Positions 1-12,882 of a DNA stretch of 12,882 nucleotides are shown piece after piece; within the stretch, counting starts at the first letter, position 1; every line of letters begins with the position of its first letter. The stretch is from a virus (lineage: Duplodnaviria; Heunggongvirae; Uroviricota; Caudoviricetes): positions 1 through 12,882 of the IMG/VR virus record IMGVR_UViG_2667528155_000006; one strand, written 5' to 3'. The position numbers were made by a program, and so were the translations under genes. The notes under the pieces were generated by a model that was not told the DNA's origin, ran no database searches, and saw nothing but the letters and a program-made list of their open reading frames with translations.

Positions 1-3206
<3,206 letters not shown>

Positions 3207-3226
<20 letters not shown>

Positions 3227-4526
3227 TCTCCCGCATATTGCCAGTATGGCCTTTAATGAGCCGCTGATGCTTGAACCCGCCTATGCGCGGGTTTTCTTTT
3301 GTGCGCTTGCAGGCCAGCTTGGGATCAGCCGCCTGACGGATGCGGTATCCGGCGACAGCCTGACTGCCGGAGAGGCACCCGCGGCGCTGGCGTTATCCGT
3401 TGATGATGACGGACCACGACAGGCCCGCAGTTATCAGGTCATGAACGGCATCGCCGTGCTGCCGGTGTCCGGCACGCTGGTCAGCCGGACGCGAGCGCTG
3501 CAGCCGTATTCGGGGATGACCGGTTACAACGGCATTATCGCCCGTCTGCAACAGGCTGCCAGCGACCCGATGGTGGACGGCATTCTGCTCGATATGGATA
3601 CGCCAGGCGGGATGGTGGCAGGGGCATTTGACTGCGCTGACATCATCGCCCGTGTGCGTGACATAAAACCGGTATGGGCGCTGGCCAACGACATGAACTG
3701 CAGTGCAGGTCAGCTGCTTGCCAGTGCCGCCTCCCGGCGTCTGGTCACGCAGACCGCCCGGACAGGCTCCATCGGCGTCATGATGGCTCACAGTAATTAC
3801 GGTGCTGCGCTGGAGAAACAGGGGGTGGAAATCACGCTGATTTACAGCGGCAGCCATAAGGTGGATGGCAACCCCTACAGCCATCTTCCGGATGACGTCC
3901 GGGAGACACTGCAGTCCCGGATGGATGCAACCCGCCGGATGTTTGCGCAGAAGGTGTCGGCATATACCGGCCTGTCCGTGCAGGCTGTTCTGGATACCGA
4001 GGCTGCAGTGTACAGCGGTCAGGAGGCCATTGATGCCGGACTGGCTGATGAACTTGTTAACAGCACCGATGCGATCACCGTCATGCGTGATGCACTGGAT
4101 GCACGTAAATCCCGTCTCTCAGGAGGGCGAATGACCAAAGAGACCCAATCAACAACTGTTTCAGCCACTGCTTCGCAGGCTGACGTTACTGACGTGATGC
4201 CAGCGACGGAGGGCGAAAACGCCAGCGCGGCGCAGCCGGACGTGAACGCGCAGATCACCGCTGCGGTTGCGGCAGAAAACAGCCGCATTATGGGGATCCT
4301 CAACTGTGAGGAGGCTCACGGACGCGAAGAACAGGCCCGCGTGCTGGCTGAAACCCCCGGTATGACCGTGGAAACGGCCCGCCGCATTCTGGCCGCAGCA
4401 CCACAGAGTGCACAGGCGCGCAGTGATACTGCGCTGGATCGTCTGATGCAGGGGGCACCGGCACCGCTGGCTGCAGGTAACCCGGCATCTGATGCCGTTA
4501 ACGATTTGCTGAACACACCAGTGTAA
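3207..4526 (+). CDS. C: Head maturation protease / minor capsid protein gpC (439 aa, GTG start)
   Basis: GTG at 3207-3209 preceded by GAGGAGGAG (3194-3202); translation from there is (M)TAELRNLPHIASMAFNEPLMLEPAYARVFF..., 439 aa, matching lambda gpC. The ORF track's earlier ATG at 3093 lies inside B and is not the start. Confidence 0.9.
3921..4526 (+). CDS. nu3: Scaffolding protein Nu3, nested in-frame within the 3' third of C and sharing its stop codon
   Basis: In-frame ATG at 3921 (714 nt after the C start) gives MDATRRMFAQKVSAYTGLSVQ...NDLLNTPV, about 201 aa. The C/Nu3 nested arrangement is established lambda knowledge; the start position is set from that spacing. Confidence 0.8.
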   Translation: MDATRRMFAQKVSAYTGLSVQAVLDTEAAVYSGQEAIDAGLADELVNSTDAITVMRDALDARKSRLSGGRMTKETQSTTVSATASQADVTDVMPATEGENASAAQPDVNAQITAAVAAENSRIMGILNCEEAHGREEQARVLAETPGMTVETARRILAAAPQSAQARSDTALDRLMQGAPAPLAAGNPASDAVNDLLNTPV

Positions 4527-4535
4527 GGGATGTTT

Positions 4536-4868
4536 ATGACGAGCAAAGAAACCTTTACCCATTACCAGCCGCTGGGCAACAGTGACCCGGCTCATACCGC
4601 AACCGCGCCCGGCGGATTGAGTGCGAAAGCGCCTGCAATGACCCCGCTGATGCTGGACACCTCCACCCGTAAGCTGGTTGCGTGGGATGGCACCACCGAC
4701 GGTGCTGCCGTTGGCATTCTTGCAGTTGCTGCTGACCAGACCAGCACCACACTGACGTTCTACAAGTCCGGCACGTTCCGTTATGAGGATGTGCTCTGGC
4801 CGGAGGCTGCCAGCGACGAGACGAAAAAACGGACCGCGTTTGCCGGAACGGCAATCAGCATCGTTTAA
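4536..4868 (+). CDS. D: Head decoration protein gpD (110 aa)
   Basis: [41 protein letters not shown]...[10 protein letters not shown]; ATG at 4536 with AAGGGA about 6 nt upstream. The ORF track's ATG at 4530 adds 2 codons and is less well placed relative to the SD. Confidence 0.92.
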
Positions 4869-4888
4869 CTTTACCCTTCATCACTAAA

Positions 4889-4910
4889 GGCCGCCTGTGC
4901 GGCTTTTTTT
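4889..4910 (+). terminator. Intrinsic-terminator-like hairpin in the D-E spacer: stem GCCGC (4890-4894), loop CTGT, stem GCGGC (4899-4903), then T7 (4904-4910)
   Basis: Read directly from sequence: aaaggccgcCTGTgcggcttttttt; a perfect 5-bp GC stem plus possible A:U extension, followed by 7 T. A second T8 run (4917-4924) abuts the E start codon. Confidence 0.4.
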
Positions 4911-4924
4911 ACGGGATTTTTTTT

Positions 4925-5950
4925 ATGTCGATGTACACAACCGCCCAGCTGCTGGCGGCAAATGAGCAGAAATTTAAGTTTGATCCGCTGTTTCTGCGTC
5001 TCTTTTTCCGTGAGAGCTATCCCTTCACCACGGAGAAAGTCTATCTCTCACAAATTCCGGGACTGGTAAACATGGCGCTGTACGTTTCGCCGATTGTTTC
5101 CGGTGAGGTTATCCGTTCCCGTGGCGGATCCACCTCTGAATTTACGCCGGGATATGTCAAACCCAAGCATGAGGTGAATCCGCAGATGACCCTGCGTCGC
5201 CTGCCGGATGAAGATCCGCAGAATCTGGCGGACCCGGCTTACCGCCGCCGTCGCATCATCATGCAGAACATGCGTGACGAAGAGCTGGCCATTGCTCAGG
5301 TCGAAGAGATGCAGGCCGTTTCTGCCGTGCTTAAGGGCAAATACACCATGACCGGTGAAGCCTTCGATCCGGTTGAGGTGGATATGGGCCGCAGTGCGGC
5401 GAATAACATCACGCAGTCCGGCGGCACGGAGTGGAGCAAGCGTGACAAGTCCACGTATGACCCGACCGACGATATCGAAGCCTACGCGCTGAACGCCAGC
5501 GGTGTGGTGAATATCATCGTGTTTGATCCGAAAGGCTGGGCGCTGTTCCGTTCCTTCAAAGCCGTCAAGGAGAAGCTGGATACCCGTCGTGGCTCTAATT
5601 CCGAGCTGGAGACAGCGGTGAAAGACCTGGGTAAAGCGGTGTCCTATAAGGGGATGTATGGCGATGTTGCCATCGTCGTGTATTCCGGACAGTACGTGGA
5701 AAACGGCGTCAAAAAGAACTTCCTGCCGGACAACACGATGGTGCTGGGGAACACTCAGGCACGCGGTCTGCGTACCTATGGCTGTATTCAGGATGCGGAC
5801 GCACAGCGCGAAGGCATTAACGCCTCTGCCCGTTACCCGAAAAACTGGGTGACCACCGGCGATCCGGCGCGTGAGTTCACCATGATTCAGTCAGCACCGC
5901 TGATGCTGCTGGCTGACCCTGATGAGTTCGTGTCCGTACAACTGGCGTAA
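4925..5950 (+). CDS. E: Major capsid protein gpE (341 aa)
   Basis: MSMYTTAQLLAANEQKFKFDPLFLRLFFRESYPFTTEKVYLSQIPGLVNMALYVSP...DEFVSVQLA; 341 aa, matching lambda gpE in size and sequence as recalled. Confidence 0.95.
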   Translation: MSMYTTAQLLAANEQKFKFDPLFLRLFFRESYPFTTEKVYLSQIPGLVNMALYVSPIVSGEVIRSRGGSTSEFTPGYVKPKHEVNPQMTLRRLPDEDPQNLADPAYRRRRIIMQNMRDEELAIAQVEEMQAVSAVLKGKYTMTGEAFDPVEVDMGRSAANNITQSGGTEWSKRDKSTYDPTDDIEAYALNASGVVNIIVFDPKGWALFRSFKAVKEKLDTRRGSNSELETAVKDLGKAVSYKGMYGDVAIVVYSGQYVENGVKKNFLPDNTMVLGNTQARGLRTYGCIQDADAQREGINASARYPKNWVTTGDPAREFTMIQSAPLMLLADPDEFVSVQLA

Positions 5951-5952
5951 TC

Positions 5953-5974
5953 GTGGCCCTTCGGGGCCATTTTC
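5953..5974 (+). terminator. Hairpin immediately after the E stop: stem (G)TGGCCC, UUCG tetraloop, stem GGGCCA(T), then TTTTCTCTCT
   Basis: Read directly: gTGGCCCttcgGGGCCAttttctctc, starting 3 nt after the E stop codon; 6-7 bp GC-rich stem with a UUCG loop and a short T-run. Confidence 0.4.
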
Positions 5975-5991
5975 TCTCTGTGGAGGAGTCC

Positions 5992-6390
5992 ATGACGAAA
6001 GATGAACTGATTGCCCGTCTCCGCTCGCTGGGTGAACAACTGAACCGTGATGTCAGTCTGACGGGGACGAAAGAAGAACTGGCGCTCCGTGTGGCAGAGC
6101 TGGAAGAGGAGCTTGATGACACGGGCGACACTGCCGGTCAGGATACCCCTCTCAGCCCGGAAAATGTGCTGACCGGGCATGAACATGAGGTGGTATCAGC
6201 GCAGCCGGATACCGTGATTCAGGATACGGCTGAACTGGTCACGGTCGTGGCACTGGTGACGCTGCATACTGATGCACTTCACGCCACGCGGGATGAACCT
6301 GTGGCATTTGTGCTGCCGGGAACGGCGTTCCGTGTCTCTGCCGGTGTGGCAGCTGAAATGACAGAGCGCGGCCTGGCCAGAATGCAATAA
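5992..6390 (+). CDS. FI: DNA packaging / head assembly protein gpFI (132 aa)
   Basis: ATG at 5992 preceded by GGAGGAG (5982-5988); MTKDELIARLRSLGEQLNRDVSLTGTKEELALRVAELEEE...ERGLARMQ. The ORF track's upstream ATG at 5953 lies in the E-FI hairpin and lacks an SD. Confidence 0.9.
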   Translation: MTKDELIARLRSLGEQLNRDVSLTGTKEELALRVAELEEELDDTGDTAGQDTPLSPENVLTGHEHEVVSAQPDTVIQDTAELVTVVALVTLHTDALHATRDEPVAFVLPGTAFRVSAGVAAEMTERGLARMQ

Positions 6391-6401
6391 CGGGAGGCGC
6401 T

Positions 6402-6755
6402 GTGGCTGATTTCGATAACCTGTTCGATGCTGCCATTGCCCGCACCGATGAAACGATACGCGGGTACATGGGAACGTCAGCCACCATGACATCCGGTGAG
6501 CAGTCCGGCGCAGTAATACGTGGTGTTTTTGATGACCCTGAAAATATCAGCTATGCCGGACAGGGCGTGCGCGTTGAAGGCTCCAGCCCGTCCCTGTTTG
6601 TCCGGACTGATGATGTGCGGCAACTGCGGCGTGGAGACACGCTGACCATCGGTGAGGAAAACTTCTGGATAGATCGTGTTTCGCCGGATGATGGCGGAAG
6701 CTGTCATCTCTGGCTTGGACGGGGCGTACCGCCTGCCGTTAACCGTCGCCGCTGA
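6402..6755 (+). CDS. FII: Head-tail connector protein gpFII (117 aa, GTG start)
   Basis: GTG at 6402 preceded by GGGAGG (6392-6397); (M)ADFDNLFDAAIARTDETIRGYMGTSATMTSGEQ...GRGVPPAVNRRR; size and position match lambda FII. Confidence 0.9.
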   Translation: MADFDNLFDAAIARTDETIRGYMGTSATMTSGEQSGAVIRGVFDDPENISYAGQGVRVEGSSPSLFVRTDDVRQLRRGDTLTIGEENFWIDRVSPDDGGSCHLWLGRGVPPAVNRRR

Positions 6756-6766
6756 AAGGGGGATGT

Positions 6767-7345
6767 ATGGCCATAAAAGGTCTTGAGCAGGCCGTTGAAA
6801 ACCTCAGCCGTATCAGCAAAACGGCGGTGCCTGGTGCCGCCGCAATGGCCATTAACCGCGTTGCTTCATCCGCGATATCGCAGTCGGCGTCACAGGTTGC
6901 CCGTGAGACAAAGGTACGCCGGAAACTGGTAAAGGAAAGGGCCAGGCTGAAAAGGGCCACGGTTAAAAATCCGCAGGCCAGAATCAAGGTTAACCGGGGG
7001 GATTTGCCCGTAATAAAGCTGGGTAACGCGCGGATTGTCCTGTCCCGACGCAGGCGTCGTAAAAAGGGGCAGCGTTCAGCCCTGAAAGGTGGCGGCAGCG
7101 TGCTTGTGGTGGGAAACCGTCGTATTCCCGGCGCGTTTATTCAGCAACTGAAAAATGGCCGCTGGCATGTTATGCAGCGTGTGGCCGGGAAAAACCGTTA
7201 CCCCATTGATGTGGTGAAAATCCCGATGGCGGTGCCACTGACCACGGCGTTTAAACAGAATATTGAACGGATACGGCGTGAGCGTCTTCCGAAAGAGCTG
7301 GGCTATGCGCTGCAGCATCAACTGAGAATGGTAATAAAGCGATGA
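6767..7345 (+). CDS. Z: Tail assembly / tail completion protein gpZ (192 aa)
   Basis: MAIKGLEQAVENLSRISKTAVPGAAAMAINRVASSAISQSASQVARETKV...; 192 aa; stop overlaps the U start (ATGA at 7342-7345). Confidence 0.92.
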   Translation: MAIKGLEQAVENLSRISKTAVPGAAAMAINRVASSAISQSASQVARETKVRRKLVKERARLKRATVKNPQARIKVNRGDLPVIKLGNARIVLSRRRRRKKGQRSALKGGGSVLVVGNRRIPGAFIQQLKNGRWHVMQRVAGKNRYPIDVVKIPMAVPLTTAFKQNIERIRRERLPKELGYALQHQLRMVIKR

Positions 7346-7737
7346 AACATACTGAACTCCGTGCAGCCGTACTGGATGCACTGGAGAAGCATGACACCGG
7401 GGCGACGCTTTTTGATGGTCGCCCCGCTGTTTTTGATGAGGCGGATTTTCCGGCAATTGCCGTTTATCTCACCGGCGCTGAATACACGGGCGAAGAGCTG
7501 GACAGCGATACCTGGCAGGCGGAGCTGCATATTGAAGTTTTCCTGCCTGCTCAGGTGCCGGATTCAGAGCTGGATTCGTGGATGGAGTCCCGGATTTATC
7601 CGGTGATGAGCGATATTCCGGCACTGTCAGATTTGATCACCAGTATGGTGGCCAGTGGCTATGACTACCGACGCGACGATGATGCGGGCCTGTGGAGTTC
7701 AGCCGATCTGACGTATGTCATTACCTATGAAATGTGA
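7342..7737 (+). CDS. U: Tail tube terminator protein gpU (131 aa)
   Basis: [69 protein letters not shown]...; 131 aa as in lambda gpU. Confidence 0.93.
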
Positions 7738-7744
7738 GGACGCT

Positions 7745-7825
7745 ATGCCTGTACCAAATCCTACAATGCCGGTGAAAGGGGCCGGGACCACACTGTGGGT
7801 TTATAAGGGGAACGGTGACCCTTAT
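7745..7825 (+). pseudogene. V: 5' fragment of major tail protein gene V (about 27 codons of lambda origin; the reading frame then runs into host-derived sequence and stops at 7850-7852)
   Basis: ATG at 7745 then [27 protein letters not shown], the gpV N-terminus as recalled; after about 7825 the translation (RTLRRATV*) no longer resembles gpV and the nucleotides instead encode WcaK in another frame. Breakpoint precision about +/-8 nt. Confidence 0.8.
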
Positions 7826-8717
7826 CGAACACTACGGCGTGCCACAGTTTGAACATGCGCTTTGCACATTTATGGCGAAAAAGCCGCTGTTTATGATTGG
7901 TCACAGCGTCGGCCCCTTCCAGGATGAGCAATTTAACCAACTGGCGAACTACGTTTTTGGTCACTGCGATGCGCTGATCCTGCGCGAATCGGTCAGCCTT
8001 GATTTGATGAAACGCAGCAATATCTCCACTGCAAAAGTTGAACATGGCGTCGATACCGCGTGGCTGGTCGATCACCACACAGAAGACTTCACCGCCAGCT
8101 ATGCCGTTCAACACTGGCTGGACGTTGCCGCACAACAGAAAACGGTGGCAATTACCCTGCGCGAACTGGCACCGTTCGACAAACGTCTCGGCACCACCCA
8201 ACAAGCGTATGAAAAAGCCTTTGCCGGGGTGGTCAATCGCATTCTCGACGAAGGCTATCAGGTCATTGCGCTCTCCACCTGTACGGGCATCGACAGCTAT
8301 AACAAAGACGACCGCATGGTGGCGCTCAATCTGCGCCAGCACATCTGCGATCCTGCCCGTTACCACGTAGTGATGGATGAACTCAATGATCTGGAAATGG
8401 GCAAAATTCTCGGTGCCAGTGAACTCACCGTCGGTACGCGCCTGCACTCAGCCATTATCTCGATGAACTTTGCCACTCCGGCGATTGCCATCAACTATGA
8501 ACATAAATCCGCCGGGATTATGCAGCAGCTGGGGCTGCCAGAGATGGCAATTGATATCCGTCATTTACTGGACGGCAGCCTGCAAGCGATGGTTGCGGAT
8601 ACCTTAGGCCAACTTCCGGCGCTGAACGCGCGACTTAACGAAGCCGTCAGTCGCGAACGTCAGACGGGAATGCAGATGGTGCAATCTGTGCTTGAACGCA
8701 TCGGGGAGGTGAAATGA
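7826..8717 (+). pseudogene. wcaK: wcaK (colanic acid biosynthesis pyruvyl transferase), 5'-truncated; about the C-terminal 297 codons retained
   Basis: Frame 0 translation ...[63 protein letters not shown]...[15 protein letters not shown] matches the C-terminal portion of E. coli WcaK as recalled (full length is over 400 aa); no N-terminal part is present upstream; stop overlaps the wcaL start (ATGA at 8714-8717). Confidence 0.85.
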
Positions 8718-9934
8718 AGGTCGGCTTCTTTTTACTGAAATTTCCGCTGTCGTCGGAAACCTTCGTTCTCAACCAAATCACTGCGTTTATTGATATGGGA
8801 TTTGAGGTGGAGATTGTCGCGCTGCAAAAAGGCGACACACAAAACACCCACGCGGCATGGACGAAATACAACCTTGCCGCCAGAACCCGCTGGTTACAGG
8901 ACGAACCTACGGGCAAAGTGGCGAAGCTGCGCCACCGCGCCAGCCAGACCTTACGCGGCATTCATCGCAAAAATACCTGGCAGGCGCTCAACCTCAAACG
9001 CTATGGTGCCGAGTCGCGGAACCTGATTTTGTCTGCCATTTGCGGCCAGGTCGCAACACCATTTTATGCCGATGTGTTCATCGCTCATTTTGGCCCGGCG
9101 GGGGTAACCGCAGCAAAACTACGCGAATTGGGTGTCATTCGCGGCAAAATTGCCACTATCTTCCACGGTATTGATATATCCAGTCGGGAAGTGCTCAACC
9201 ACTACACTCCCGAATATCAGCAACTGTTCCGCCGTGGCGACCTGATGCTACCGATAAGTGATTTGTGGGCCGGAAGGCTGCAAAAAATGGGCTGCCCGAG
9301 GGAAAAAATTGCCGTATCGCGTATGGGCGTGGACATGACGCGCTTTAGCCCGCGTCCGGTGAAAGCACCCGCAACGCCGCTGGAAATCATTTCCGTCGCA
9401 CGCTTAACCGAGAAAAAAGGCCTGCATGTGGCGATTGAAGCCTGCCGTCAGTTGAAAGAGCAGGGCGTGGCATTTCGCTATCGCATTCTCGGCATTGGCC
9501 CGTGGGAACGACGCCTGCGCACCCTCATCGAACAATATCAACTGGAAGATGTGGTGGAGATGCCGGGCTTTAAACCGAGCCATGAAGTGAAAGCGATGCT
9601 CGACGACGCGGATGTCTTCCTCTTGCCATCGGTTACAGGTGCGGATGGTGATATGGAAGGTATTCCGGTGGCGCTAATGGAAGCAATGGCGGTCGGCATT
9701 CCGGTTGTTTCAACTCTGCATAGCGGAATACCAGAACTGGTTGAGGCCGATAAATCCGGCTGGCTGGTGCCTGAGAATGATGCTCGCGCACTGGCGCAAC
9801 GCCTAGCGGCATTTAGCCAACTGGACACCGACGAACTGGCTCCGGTTGTCAAACGAGCGCGCGAAAAAGTCGAACACGATTTTAACCAGCAGGTGATTAA
9901 TCGAGAACTCGCCAGCTTGCTGCAAGCTTTATAG
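8714..9934 (+). CDS. wcaL: Colanic acid biosynthesis glycosyltransferase WcaL (406 aa)
   Basis: [41 protein letters not shown]...; 406 aa; GT4-type motif region (...[20 protein letters not shown]...); position between wcaK and wcaM as in the K-12 wca operon. Confidence 0.9.
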
Positions 9935-9944
9935 AGGAGAACGT

Positions 9945-11339
9945 ATGCCATTTAAAAAACTCTCCCGACGCACCTTCCTGACGGCAAGCTCCGCGCTTGC
10001 CTTCCTCCATACCCCTTTCGCTCGCGCACTTCCCGACCAACAGAGCGTTAACATTAACGACTACAACCCTCACGACTGGATCGCCTCATTTAAACAAGCC
10101 TTCAGCGAAGGACAAACAGTCGTCGTGCCTGCCGGATTCGTTTGTGACAATATCAACACCGGCATCTTCATCCCTCCCGGCAAAACGTTACACATCCTTG
10201 GAAGCCTGCGCGGCAACGGCAGAGGGCGATTTGTCTTACAGGACGGCAGCCAGGTGACAGGGGAGGAGGGCGGCAGTATGCATAACATCACCCTGGATGT
10301 GCGTGGTTCTGACTGCACCATCAAAGGGCTGGCGATGAGCGGTTTCTGCCCGGTAACGCAGATTTATATCGGCGGCAAAAACAAACGGGTTATGCGTAAC
10401 CTGACCATCGATAACCTGACCATTAGCCACGCTAATTACGCCATCTTACGTCAGGGATTTCATAACCAGATTATCGGTGCCAACATCACCAATTGTAAGT
10501 TCAGCGACTTACAGGGGGACGCCATTGAATGGAACGTGGCGATTAACGACAGTGATATTTTGATCTCCGACCACATCATCGAGCGCATCAACTGTACCAA
10601 CGGCAAAATCAACTGGGGAATCGGCATAGGCCTTGCGGGGAGTACTTATGATAATAACTACCCGGAAGACCAGGCAGTGAAAAACTTTGTCGTGGCGAAT
10701 ATCACGGGATCGGATTGTCGACAACTGATCCATGTTGAAAATGGTAAACATTTTGTTATTCGTAATATCAAAGCCCGCAATATCACGCCGGATTTCAGTA
10801 AGAAAGCAGGTATTGATAACGCCACGGTCGCTATTTACGGTTGTGACAATTTCGTGATTGATAATATTGAAATGATTAATAGCGCCGGGATGTTAATCGG
10901 TTATGGGGTAATTAAAGGCAAATATCTCTCGATACCGCAAAATTTCCGAGTGAATAATATTCAGCTGGATAACACCCACCTTGCTTACAAATTGCGCGGT
11001 ATCCAAATCTCTGCCGGGAATGCTGTCTCCTTTGTGGCACTGACTAACATTGAGATGAAGCGTGCCTCGTTGGAGTTACACAACAAACCGCAACATCTTT
11101 TTATACGAAATATCAAAGTGATGCAGGAATACTCTGTTGCACCCGCATTGAGCATGAACTTCGACATGCGCAAAGACGTTCGCGGCGTCTTTATGGCGAA
11201 AAAAGAAACACTGCTGTCTCTTGCAAATGTTCATGCGGTGAATGAAAGAGGGCAAAGCTCCGTCGATATCGACAGGGTTAATCACCATATTGTTAATGTG
11301 GAAAAGATTAACTTTAGATTGCCAGAACGGAGAGAGTAG
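9945..11339 (+). CDS. wcaM: Colanic acid biosynthesis protein WcaM (464 aa), with a Tat-like signal peptide
   Basis: ATG at 9945 preceded by GAGGAG (9934-9939); N-terminus [30 protein letters not shown] contains an S-R-R-x-F-L twin-arginine motif followed by a hydrophobic stretch and A-x-A; last gene of the wca operon before galF. Confidence 0.9.
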
Positions 11340-11477
11340 ATTTGCGACCATTCCTGGAAAAATGGAGCCATACTTAGGAACAATGCTACTGCAATCCACA
11401 ACGAAGCGGCGTAACATCACAAGTAATTCAGTAATCAATTCAGGGTAATTGATGCTGGCGAAAAAAATCGAACAAGC

Positions 11478-11483
11478 TATAAT
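11478..11483 (+). promoter_or_regulatory. Candidate -10 hexamer (TATAAT) for galF; no convincing -35
   Basis: Perfect TATAAT at 11478-11483, about 30 nt upstream of the galF ATG; hexamers 16-18 bp upstream (CTGGCG/GCTGGC) are poor matches to TTGACA. Pattern match only. Confidence 0.25.
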
Positions 11484-11513
11484 TCAGCAACCATTTTACA
11501 GGTGGATGAAATA

Positions 11514-12407
11514 ATGACGAATTTAAAAGCAGTTATTCCTGTAGCGGGTCTTGGGATGCATATGTTGCCTGCCACTAAGGCGATTCCCAAAGAGATGCTA
11601 CCGATCGTCGACAAGCCAATGATTCAGTACATTGTTGACGAGATTGTGGCTGCAGGGATCAAAGAAATCCTCCTGGTAACTCACGCGTCCAAGAACGCGG
11701 TCGAAAACCACTTCGACACCTCTTATGAATTAGAATCTCTCCTTGAACAGCGCGTGAAGCGTCAACTACTGGCGGAAGTGCAGTCCATCTGTCCGCCGGG
11801 CGTGACCATTATGAACGTGCGTCAGGGCGAACCTTTAGGTTTGGGCCACTCCATTTTATGTGCACGACCTGCCATTGGTGACAACCCATTTGTCGTGGTA
11901 CTGCCAGACGTTGTTATCGATGACGCCAGCGCCGATCCGCTACGCTATAACCTTGCTGCCATGATTGCGCGCTTCAACGAAACGGGCCGCAGCCAGGTGC
12001 TGGCAAAACGTATGCCGGGTGACCTCTCTGAATACTCCGTCATTCAGACCAAAGAACCACTGGATCGTGAAGGTAAAGTCAGCCGCATCGTCGAATTTAT
12101 CGAAAAACCGGATCAGCCGCAGACGCTGGACTCAGACATCATGGCCGTTGGTCGCTATGTGCTTTCTGCCGATATTTGGCCGGAACTTGAACGCACGCAA
12201 CCTGGTGCATGGGGGCGTATTCAGCTGACTGATGCTATTGCCGAACTGGCGAAAAAACAGTCCGTTGATGCCATGCTGATGACCGGCGACAGCTACGACT
12301 GCGGTAAAAAAATGGGCTATATGCAGGCGTTTGTGAAGTATGGACTGCGCAACCTGAAGGAAGGGCCAAAGTTCCGTAAGAGCATTGAGAAGTTGCTCGG
12401 GGAATAG
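11514..12407 (+). CDS. galF: GalF, UTP-glucose-1-phosphate uridylyltransferase paralogue / regulatory subunit (297 aa)
   Basis: ATG at 11514 preceded by AGGTGGA (11500-11506, 7-nt spacing); [68 protein letters not shown]...; 297 aa. The ORF track's GTG at 11502 adds 4 codons and is not favoured. Confidence 0.92.
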
Positions 12408-12652
12408 ATCCCAAGCCAATGTAACAATAATTTAGATAAATAGCGGCAGCTAACATCCCGGCGTCTATGCTTTAAACAAAGGAATGTTACTGTCGTTTTT
12501 CTTTTTAAAACAAAGAATAACAACGAGTTAACCTACTAAGTTTAATCTATTTTTTGTTGGATTTATCCTTGTTTCTGACAGCATTTGGTAAGACAATTGG
12601 CGTTTGAATTTAAGATAGCTTTGCGATAGCTAGCGGGGCGGGGTACATCTTT

Positions 12653-12691
12653 GGCATTTTGCTAGTGCACTGGTAGCTGTTAAGCCAGGGG
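12653..12691 (+). promoter_or_regulatory. JUMPstart element (39 bp) containing the ops motif GGCGGTAGCGTG (12680-12691); RfaH-dependent antitermination signal upstream of the O-antigen cluster
   Basis: Sequence TAGTGCACTGGTAGCTGTTAAGCCAGGGGCGGTAGCGTG matches the JUMPstart consensus as recalled, and its 3' 12 nt are an exact ops element; located in the AT-rich galF-to-O-antigen intergenic region where this element is expected. Confidence 0.85.
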
Positions 12692-12800
12692 CGGTAGCGT
12701 GGTAAGATTGTGTTTATATGATGCGTTCTCAAAATAAGAAATAATAATCCTGACTATTTTTATACTATTGATAATATCTGAAATAAACTTAAGAGCAAAC

Positions 12801-12882
12801 ATGAAAGTAATTGTAAATAATTTTTTTGATGGTATTTTGAAAAGAGGAATACCGATCTATACTTCTGAACTTGTGCAAAAGT
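12801..12882 (+). CDS. First gene of the O-antigen (or capsule) cluster downstream of galF, 3'-partial (27 codons visible); product not identifiable from this fragment
   Basis: ATG at 12801 about 110 nt after ops, with AAGAG about 7 nt upstream; MKVIVNNFFDGILKRGIPIYTSELVQK; strongly AT-rich codon usage typical of O-antigen loci; does not match the RmlB N-terminus (MKILVTGGAGFIGS...) found at this position in K-12. Confidence 0.55.
   Translation, partial: MKVIVNNFFDGILKRGIPIYTSELVQK

Follow-up and report, generated by a model that had tools for sequence, protein, structure and literature searches.

Joints between phage and host DNA that arise by illegitimate recombination are well documented in Escherichia coli (PMC11372144). 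In the aberrant-excision joints of lambda bio and lambda gal phages, as recovered in the Spi- assay of Ikeda, an internal site of a lambdoid prophage is joined to E. coli DNA across a few bases of homology (PMC11372144); the host DNA acquired in this way is that flanking att, and the phage retains cos and one att end. On the scale of the whole chromosome, inversions symmetric about the origin-terminus axis are the dominant structural variant of bacteria, and they have been attributed to breakage and misrepair at the two replication forks (PMC9584773). The known symmetric inversions mostly involve long inverted repeats, such as rrn operons, IS elements and prophages. Another group of events, comprising FoSTeS/MMBIR and filler-capturing end-joining, leaves clustered joints with 2-5 nt of microhomology at each, an insert from a distant locus, and errors beside the joints. 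These events are known mainly from human copy-number variants and from stress-induced amplification in laboratory E. coli. Related in phage content to the locus described here is the cryptic prophage DLP12 of K-12 (0.565-0.586 Mb), where a deletion internal to a prophage still at argU has left the terminase large-subunit gene as a pseudogene, aaaD.

The locus lies in a stretch of 12,882 nucleotides, hereafter the window, which spans positions 1 to 12,882 of the IMG/VR virus record IMGVR_UViG_2667528155_000006. It is assembled from three source loci: the antisense strand of yccM, the interior of a lambdoid prophage, and the colanic-acid (wca) locus, with the two joints placed to the base (Table 1). 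The reading that we favour, with a probability of about 0.55, is that of a real rearrangement, private to one strain, which arose by microhomology-mediated illegitimate joining of the RecA-independent type and took the form of a terminus-spanning inversion with a captured piece of prophage.

Table 1. Features of the window, with positions counted from its first base
Feature	Position	Strand	Basis
yccM fragment (4Fe-4S protein gene), antisense on the + strand	1-27	-	100% identity of 1-30 to CUVM3 and CPww7
Left joint, 3-nt microhomology TAT	28-30		Alignments
Terminase large-subunit gene A, first 176 codons missing	28-1425	+	Starts at lambda nt 1239; open from base 1
Intact head and proximal tail genes W, B (portal), C/nu3, D, E, FI, FII, Z, U	1422-7737	+	
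V, major tail protein gene, 5' part (first 27 codons)	7745-7825	+	Alignments, translation
Fusion ORF of 35 codons (27 of V and 8 out-of-frame, wcaK-derived) plus stop	7745-7852	+	Translation
Right joint zone, hybrid CGAACA	7826-7831		Three-way alignments
wcaK without about 132 N-terminal codons (from nt 396 of 1281)	7832-8717	+	Identity, WcaK profile
wcaL (8714-9934), wcaM (9945-11339), galF (11514-12407), all intact	8714-12407	+	Full-length equivalog matches, annotation of homologous regions
JUMPstart ahead of the O-antigen cluster, in normal context	12663-12701	+	Rfam RF01707, 59.2 bits
First O-antigen glycosyltransferase gene (O17/O44/O73/O77/O106-type cluster), start only, cut by the window end	12801-12882	+	

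The original prediction had taken the gene at the right joint for a truncated V of lambda. The phage is not lambda itself: over positions 28-7824 identity to the lambda reference is 98.04%, with 152 mismatches. The best complete E. coli chromosome reaches 99.0% identity to the phage segment, and a prophage in the isolate assembly GCA_016669325.1 (L022), found through an exact look-up of the portal protein, aligns to positions 28-7830 with no mismatch and a single gap. The genes from W to U have the lengths of their lambda homologues, contain no internal stops and show no mismatch to L022, and the frame of the truncated gene A is open from base 1 through its stop at 1425. The L022 prophage is intact, in the order ybcL-ybcM-ninE-ybcO-rusA-ylcG-Q-lysis-bor-ybcV-ybcW-nu1-A...J, and it is the complete counterpart of DLP12 at argU. 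The phage DNA of the window comes from a wild prophage of this DLP12 type and not from laboratory lambda, and what it comprises is an internal piece (A' W B C/nu3 D E FI FII Z U V') truncated on the left as well as on the right.

DLP12 of K-12 belongs to the same prophage family (order ybcL-ybcM-ninE-rusA-Q-lysis-bor-ybcV-ybcW-nohD-A), and its terminase gene has likewise been cut by a deletion. The two differ in that the segment in the window is joined to yccM and wcaK, and in that it keeps the head and proximal tail block, which DLP12 has lost. About the first 309 nt of the terminase large-subunit gene are kept in K-12 DLP12 (K-12 581,354-581,662; L053 18355-18663), and this aaaD remnant adjoins tail-fibre assembly genes, an independent deletion ending inside gene A, the gene that is broken here too. 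Two other observations concern related phage DNA. In several natural prophages of this family (L023, 13301-21400, and also L024, L026, L028, L040 and L043) an island interrupts the major capsid gene E about 91 codons in. Its genes include those for an integrase, AlpA, a D5-type primase and SSB, together with capsid-E and head-decoration homologues of its own, and it resembles a phage satellite that forms capsids and has gene E as its target. Two NCBI draft assemblies, GCA_900068905.1 (L035, 9977-12386) and GCA_000936365.1 (L039, 9774-12292), have in common a 2.4-2.5-kb lambdoid A'-W-B' fragment set between rseB' and unrelated chromosomal genes, with mukFEB beside era-rnc-lepBA and with Ns at the joins. 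They represent either a heavily rearranged lineage or patchwork assemblies, and their breakpoints are unlike those of the window.

At the right joint the original prediction had read a V start at 7745, a stop at 7850-7852 and a switch of sequence near 7826, all of which is borne out by translation and alignment: 27 normal V codons are followed by RTLRRATV* and a TGA stop. The predicted break inside two coding sequences was also confirmed, with V cut after codon 27 and wcaK beginning at nt 396, and what had been described as the C-terminal two thirds of WcaK in a frame unlike that of V amounts to about 69% of the protein, in a frame that does differ. The alternatives that would have contradicted this picture, V-derived sequence after 7826 or a full-length wcaK, are absent; wcaK sequence runs from 7832, and the match to the WcaK profile is confined to positions 130-426 of 426, with a score of 636 bits that falls below the cut-off of 727 for the full-length equivalog (TIGR04006). 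The breakpoint had been given as about 7820-7835. That location was correct, and alignment to prophages and wcaK resolved the joint to the base, narrowing it to 7826-7831 and revealing a CGA microhomology.

The exact prophage match stops at 7825 (..GGTGACCCTTAT), and with a 1-base gap (a missing G) the closest prophages align as far as 7830. Matches to lambdoid phages and prophages in general stop at 7824-7830 and those to colanic-acid loci begin at 7822-7832, the exact wcaK match starting at 7832 (CTACGGCG..). In a three-way alignment the prophage parent reads ..GGTGACCCTTAT G CGAACCCGC.., the wcaK parent reads ..TTTTTTGT CGATCTCTACGGCG.., and the window reads ..GGTGACCCTTAT CGAACA CTACGGCG.. 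across the joint. The CGA at 7826-7828 is common to the V-side prophage and wcaK, CGAAC can be read as V only if one G has been deleted, and the A at 7831 matches neither parent. The sole gap in the alignment to L022 sits in this same zone.

A second breakpoint, at positions 27-30, was missed in the original prediction. Here antisense yccM passes into terminase gene A. Positions 1-30 agree at every base with yccM of the E. coli strains CUVM3 and CPww7 (E = 8e-6 in 28 Gb) and correspond to K-12 coordinates 1,052,858-1,052,887, the K-12 allele differing at window positions 10 and 28. The allele in the window, with G at 10 and T at 28, is rare; it is found exactly in 2 of 5,426 complete genomes, both of them pig isolates. 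Phage homology begins at window 28, codon 177 of gene A, in lambda and among the matches listed from 3,351 E. coli records. The TAT at the joint occurs both in yccM (..CAGCATAT/ACTTC) and in the terminase gene (..GCGGGTTAT/GATGAAC; ..GGGTTAT/GATGAAC), and the window starts exactly 30 nt ahead of its divergence from wild-type yccM. The suggestion that a remnant of a defective prophage had become fused to the colanic-acid locus holds as regards the fusion to wcaK; the simple picture that it implied does not, since the fragment bridges two chromosomal loci whose usual distance is a million bases.

From 7832 to the window end the chromosomal DNA on the right is 99.9% identical to many E. coli genomes, with 2 differences in 5 kb between the wca part and its closest relatives, and the window breaks off after 82 nt of the first O-antigen glycosyltransferase gene, where no repeated 31-mer was found. 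CUVM3 was rejected as a close relative of the source, its wca region being 95.5% identical and its O-antigen cluster of the O23 type. Nine contigs from independent Logan and ENA samples start at window 7869-7872; the best explanation for these starts is a common SNP in a third codon position, at 7868, at which graph assemblies of mixed strains break, and they are unrelated to the junction. In some strains wcaK is split by frameshifts into two ORFs of about 140 and 281 aa (L010 9556-10846, L011/L012 9565-10846, the complete genome LR134238.1 being included), so wcaK pseudogenes occur naturally. The same split is seen in several Logan contigs (L017-L019), where it stems from homopolymer-length errors.

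The absence of an att site, IS end or flanking repeat, which had been noted for the wcaK joint, extends to both joints, and the argument that this could not be an Int integration junction stands as well: the joints are inside A and V, and the same prophage occupies the DLP12/argU site in relatives. An Int/att junction was rejected on the ground that codon 177 of A and codon 27 of V are not a prophage end, and no att core, tRNA or attB was present at the joints, where both partners, yccM and wcaK, are broken inside their coding sequence. A junction made by an IS element or transposon was dismissed too, all bases outside the 6-nt joint zone being yccM, prophage or wca and flanking repeats being absent, as was a repeat-mediated homologous inversion or deletion, the partners sharing TAT and CGA only. 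The window contains no tRNA, no Chi site and no repeated 31-mer, and its joints carry no direct or inverted flanking repeats above chance size. JUMPstart is the only Rfam element detected, and none lies near the V/wcaK joint. No restriction site common to both partners was present at either joint (GATC, TCGA and CATATG were checked), and no new promoter-like site was created at the joint.

Searches for other carriers were negative. BLAST of both joints returned no spanning match in the 5,426 complete E. coli genomes, nor did BLAST for the joint in 50,697 phage records or 72,556 plasmids (PLSDB), and exact 30-32-mers over both joints were absent from IMG/VR, JGI metagenomes and GTDB representative genomes. 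Exact protein look-ups found no record of the V' fusion (35 aa), of wcaK' at 300 and 292 aa, or of A' read from base 1. Matches were returned for wcaK' at 282, 281 and 274 aa and for A' at 425 and 408 aa; these are not the joints, and consist of contig edges at the SNP at 7868, frameshifted or homopolymer-error copies of wcaK, and frameshifted A genes.

The 3 nt shared at each joint place both within the range of 1 to about 10 bases that characterizes illegitimate joining of the microhomology type. At a random blunt join the chance of at least 3 shared nucleotides is 0.051, or about 0.003 for both joints, which argues against chimeras formed by blunt ligation; the microhomology is compatible with either cellular illegitimate recombination or polymerase template switching. 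The right joint also carries a 1-nt deletion and one unmatched base within 6 nt, the rest of the 7.8 kb being identical to L022, and these errors fit error-prone joining in a cell better than a clean switch in vitro; nor would they be left by a clean ligation. A templated source for the odd junction bases was considered in the 9-mer TCGAACACT, found 1.1 kb downstream on the other prophage strand, and was set aside, the chance expectation for such a match being about 0.16.

In their independence of Int and of long homology the joints resemble those of lambda bio and gal (PMC11372144). They differ from them in that the host partners, yccM and wcaK, are not beside the usual site of the prophage, and in that the phage piece is truncated at both ends, with cos, int and att all absent. 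The clustering of the joints, the short microhomology at each, the insert from a distant locus and the errors beside a joint are all features that the window has in common with FoSTeS/MMBIR and with filler-capturing end-joining, though it bears no sign showing that replication took part.

The arrangement of the two chromosomal arms provides a separate kind of evidence. The window reads yccM in ascending and wca in descending K-12 coordinates, so the arms are inverted relative to one another, the orientation that an inversion produces. In K-12 MG1655, the yccM breakpoint (1,052,887) and the wcaK breakpoint (about 2,118,010) are 537.9 and 527.2 kb from dif (1,590,750-777), with a midpoint 5.3 kb off dif (P = 0.0046 for a random pair). 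In CUVM3 the corresponding positions are 1,179,885 for yccM, 79,766 for wcaK and 645,760-787 for dif, giving arms of 534.1 and 566.0 kb and a midpoint 15.9 kb off dif (P = 0.013 for a random pair). The breakpoints are equidistant from dif within 2-6% in these coordinates, which are those of K-12 and CUVM3 and not of the source genome, and the test for symmetry was devised after the orientation had been seen and hence carries moderate weight. Both hallmarks of replication-associated symmetric inversions, inverted arms and breakpoints equidistant from the axis, are present (PMC9584773). Where the known cases mostly have long inverted repeats, the window has 3 nt and a 7.8-kb filler, and it would show one side of the event. 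An artefact would have no reason to respect the symmetry about dif.

The left end of the window may hold further information. A contig of a k = 31 de Bruijn graph begins at the first 31-mer that is specific to its path. Logan assemblies use k = 31, with all 31-mers distinct and singly seen k-mers discarded (PMC12424806). If the window is a contig of this kind, a premise that is assumed here, its 30-nt yccM start would imply that an intact yccM adjacency was also present in the sample, and its unbroken run through A' and V'/wcaK' would imply that wild-type adjacencies of A, V and wcaK were not. Similarly, in a short-read graph the continuous 7.8 kb and 5 kb around the V/wcaK joint would mean that there was no competing wild-type path through V or wcaK. 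On this premise the k-mers agree with a rearrangement that is fixed in the genome and includes a duplicated stretch of yccM, and they agree neither with a chimeric read of low abundance nor with a simple inversion of the reciprocal kind or a tandem duplication. For the left joint, an origin by tandem duplication was rejected as inconsistent with a contig that continues through A', provided that the reasoning from graph assembly holds.

From this evidence we infer an origin in vivo, an inversion topology and a mechanism for the joints. The 7.8-kb prophage piece, from codon 177 of A to codon 27 of V, would have been set between a broken yccM and a broken wcaK; the window would be one side of an inversion-type rearrangement that spans the replication terminus and took in the prophage piece as filler; and the route may have been either end-joining of broken ends or serial template switching by a replication fork. 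The original prediction had offered a real recombination scar and an assembly or library chimera among its options, and once laboratory reagents are left aside the balance leans towards the scar, on account of the 3-nt microhomology at both joints, the errors at the right joint, and arms that are inverted and nearly equidistant from dif. Precedents favour a real rearrangement as well, both in the terminase cut of K-12 DLP12 (aaaD) and in the illegitimate phage-host joints of E. coli (PMC11372144).

Several considerations pull the other way. Two unrelated joints within 7.8 kb weaken the preferred reading in that they demand either a complex single event or several private ones, and the best matches of the rare yccM allele, of the wca allele and of the prophage are each in a different strain. 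Bacterial inversions typically use long repeats, not 3 nt, which counts against an inversion. The intact yccM deduced from the left end weakens a simple reciprocal inversion in particular, and a duplicated yccM segment or a more complex topology would be needed to accommodate it. A simple inversion would also be expected to yield a reciprocal joint, in which wzxC-wcaK (nt 1 to about 395) runs into antisense yccM (..ACTTCACGCCGCGCAGAGG) and then torS. As for a simple deletion next to a prophage residing beside yccM (torS-torT) or beside wca, this was rejected, the identical prophage being of the DLP12/argU type; CUVM3 has no prophage at yccM-torT.

The most serious alternative, possible though on the whole unlikely, is that the joints were made outside the cell, by a chimera of amplification (for example multiple displacement, as in low-input or virome work) or of library preparation that came to dominate coverage, or by a join of the assembler's own making, in which case the organism's wca locus, yccM and prophage would all be normal and intact. 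Such an origin would account readily for three loci 0.5-1.5 Mb apart being joined within 12.9 kb, for the absence of either joint from any other public sequence searched, and for a sequence that stops just 27-30 nt past the left joint. The internal genes of the fragment are all intact, so the event is either very recent or not biological; polymerase template switching likewise uses short microhomology; and patchwork drafts with a lambdoid A'-W-B' between unrelated genes do exist (L035, L039). Amplification and library chimeras in general bring together unrelated loci at short microhomology in joints unique to one data set, as in the window, but the marks by which they are commonly recognized (nearby inverted partners, adapters, restriction sites, shared k-mers) are missing from it. 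A graph assembler would have had no basis for a mis-join, there being no repeat of k-mer length at either joint, and there is no adapter or restriction signature, the GATC of wcaK at the joint not having been retained. Amplification chimeras join mostly nearby inverted sequence, not loci 1 Mb apart. Blunt ligation is made unlikely by the microhomology at both joints, a 1-nt deletion with an unmatched base is not expected of clean switching in vitro, and a chimera present at low frequency would leave the wild-type paths of an assembly in place. The symmetry about dif and the correct inverted orientation would moreover be left as coincidence (P of about 0.005-0.013, times 0.5). Weighed together, these points make a real microhomology-mediated rearrangement more likely than an artefact, by roughly two to one.

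A more specific version of the preferred reading, which must be considered doubtful, compresses everything into a single event: a fork, or broken forks at mirror positions, would have switched template twice by way of 3-nt microhomologies, copying 7.8 kb of prophage before landing in the opposite replichore. The outcome in that case would be either an inversion across the terminus or an inverted duplication, in each instance containing a templated insert, and it would be the natural equivalent in bacteria of the error-prone replicative rearrangements with several joints that are known from human genomes.

It is also conceivable, and quite improbable, that the joints are real and no inversion occurred, either because a pre-formed block of part of yccM and A'..V' was inserted into wcaK or because two deletions trimmed a prophage adjacent to wca. 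The block would be duplicated DNA of the cell's own or DNA of another strain, and the cell's own yccM would be intact elsewhere. This would fit the coexistence of an intact yccM with the yccM/A' joint, positions 1-30 being k-1 for k = 31 and the 30-mer a natural yccM allele (PMC12424806), and it would explain why no wild-type adjacency of A, V or wcaK appears to compete; deletions ending inside the terminase gene are known, too, from K-12 DLP12. It would, however, turn the inverted orientation and the dif symmetry into coincidence and require at least two independent rare events, whereas the identical prophage is at DLP12/argU in relatives, not near yccM or wca, and no yccM/A' remnant exists in the 5,426 complete genomes or the other collections. 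It is very improbable that the window is an engineered construct or derives from a lambda reagent or sequencing control, as was raised at the outset, or that it is a lambda cloning vector or contaminating laboratory lambda DNA: lambda DNA is a common reagent and the genes follow the order of the lambda left arm, but the 7.8 kb are only 98.0% identical to lambda (152 mismatches) against no mismatch to a natural, wild prophage, the breakpoints are inside A and V and not at cloning sites, no vector, marker, FRT/loxP or adapter is present (the bases outside the 6-nt zone are all explained), and the joint is in no plasmid or phage record.

Whichever way the joints arose, the window most likely records a single private event, one more case of a known type and no new biological system. 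If it is an artefact, it is a warning case for automated calls of prophages and structural variants. If the rearrangement is real, the prophage piece is predicted to be inert, since cos, Nu1, the N-terminal part of A, the tail tube and the regulatory region are all missing from it. The inactivation of wcaK is likewise predicted, and the wcaK'-wcaL-wcaM segment would be severed from the wza promoter, with probable loss of colanic acid synthesis through the truncated wcaK and polarity on wcaL and wcaM, while galF and the O-antigen cluster should retain their own JUMPstart region. A real event would provide a large rearrangement resolved to the base in wild E. coli, made without repeats, IS elements or a site-specific recombinase, with breakpoints mirrored about the terminus and a captured prophage piece at the joint. 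As such, it would bear on the origin of symmetric inversions, by fork-associated breakage or by recombination between repeats, and on the decay of prophages into gene fragments.
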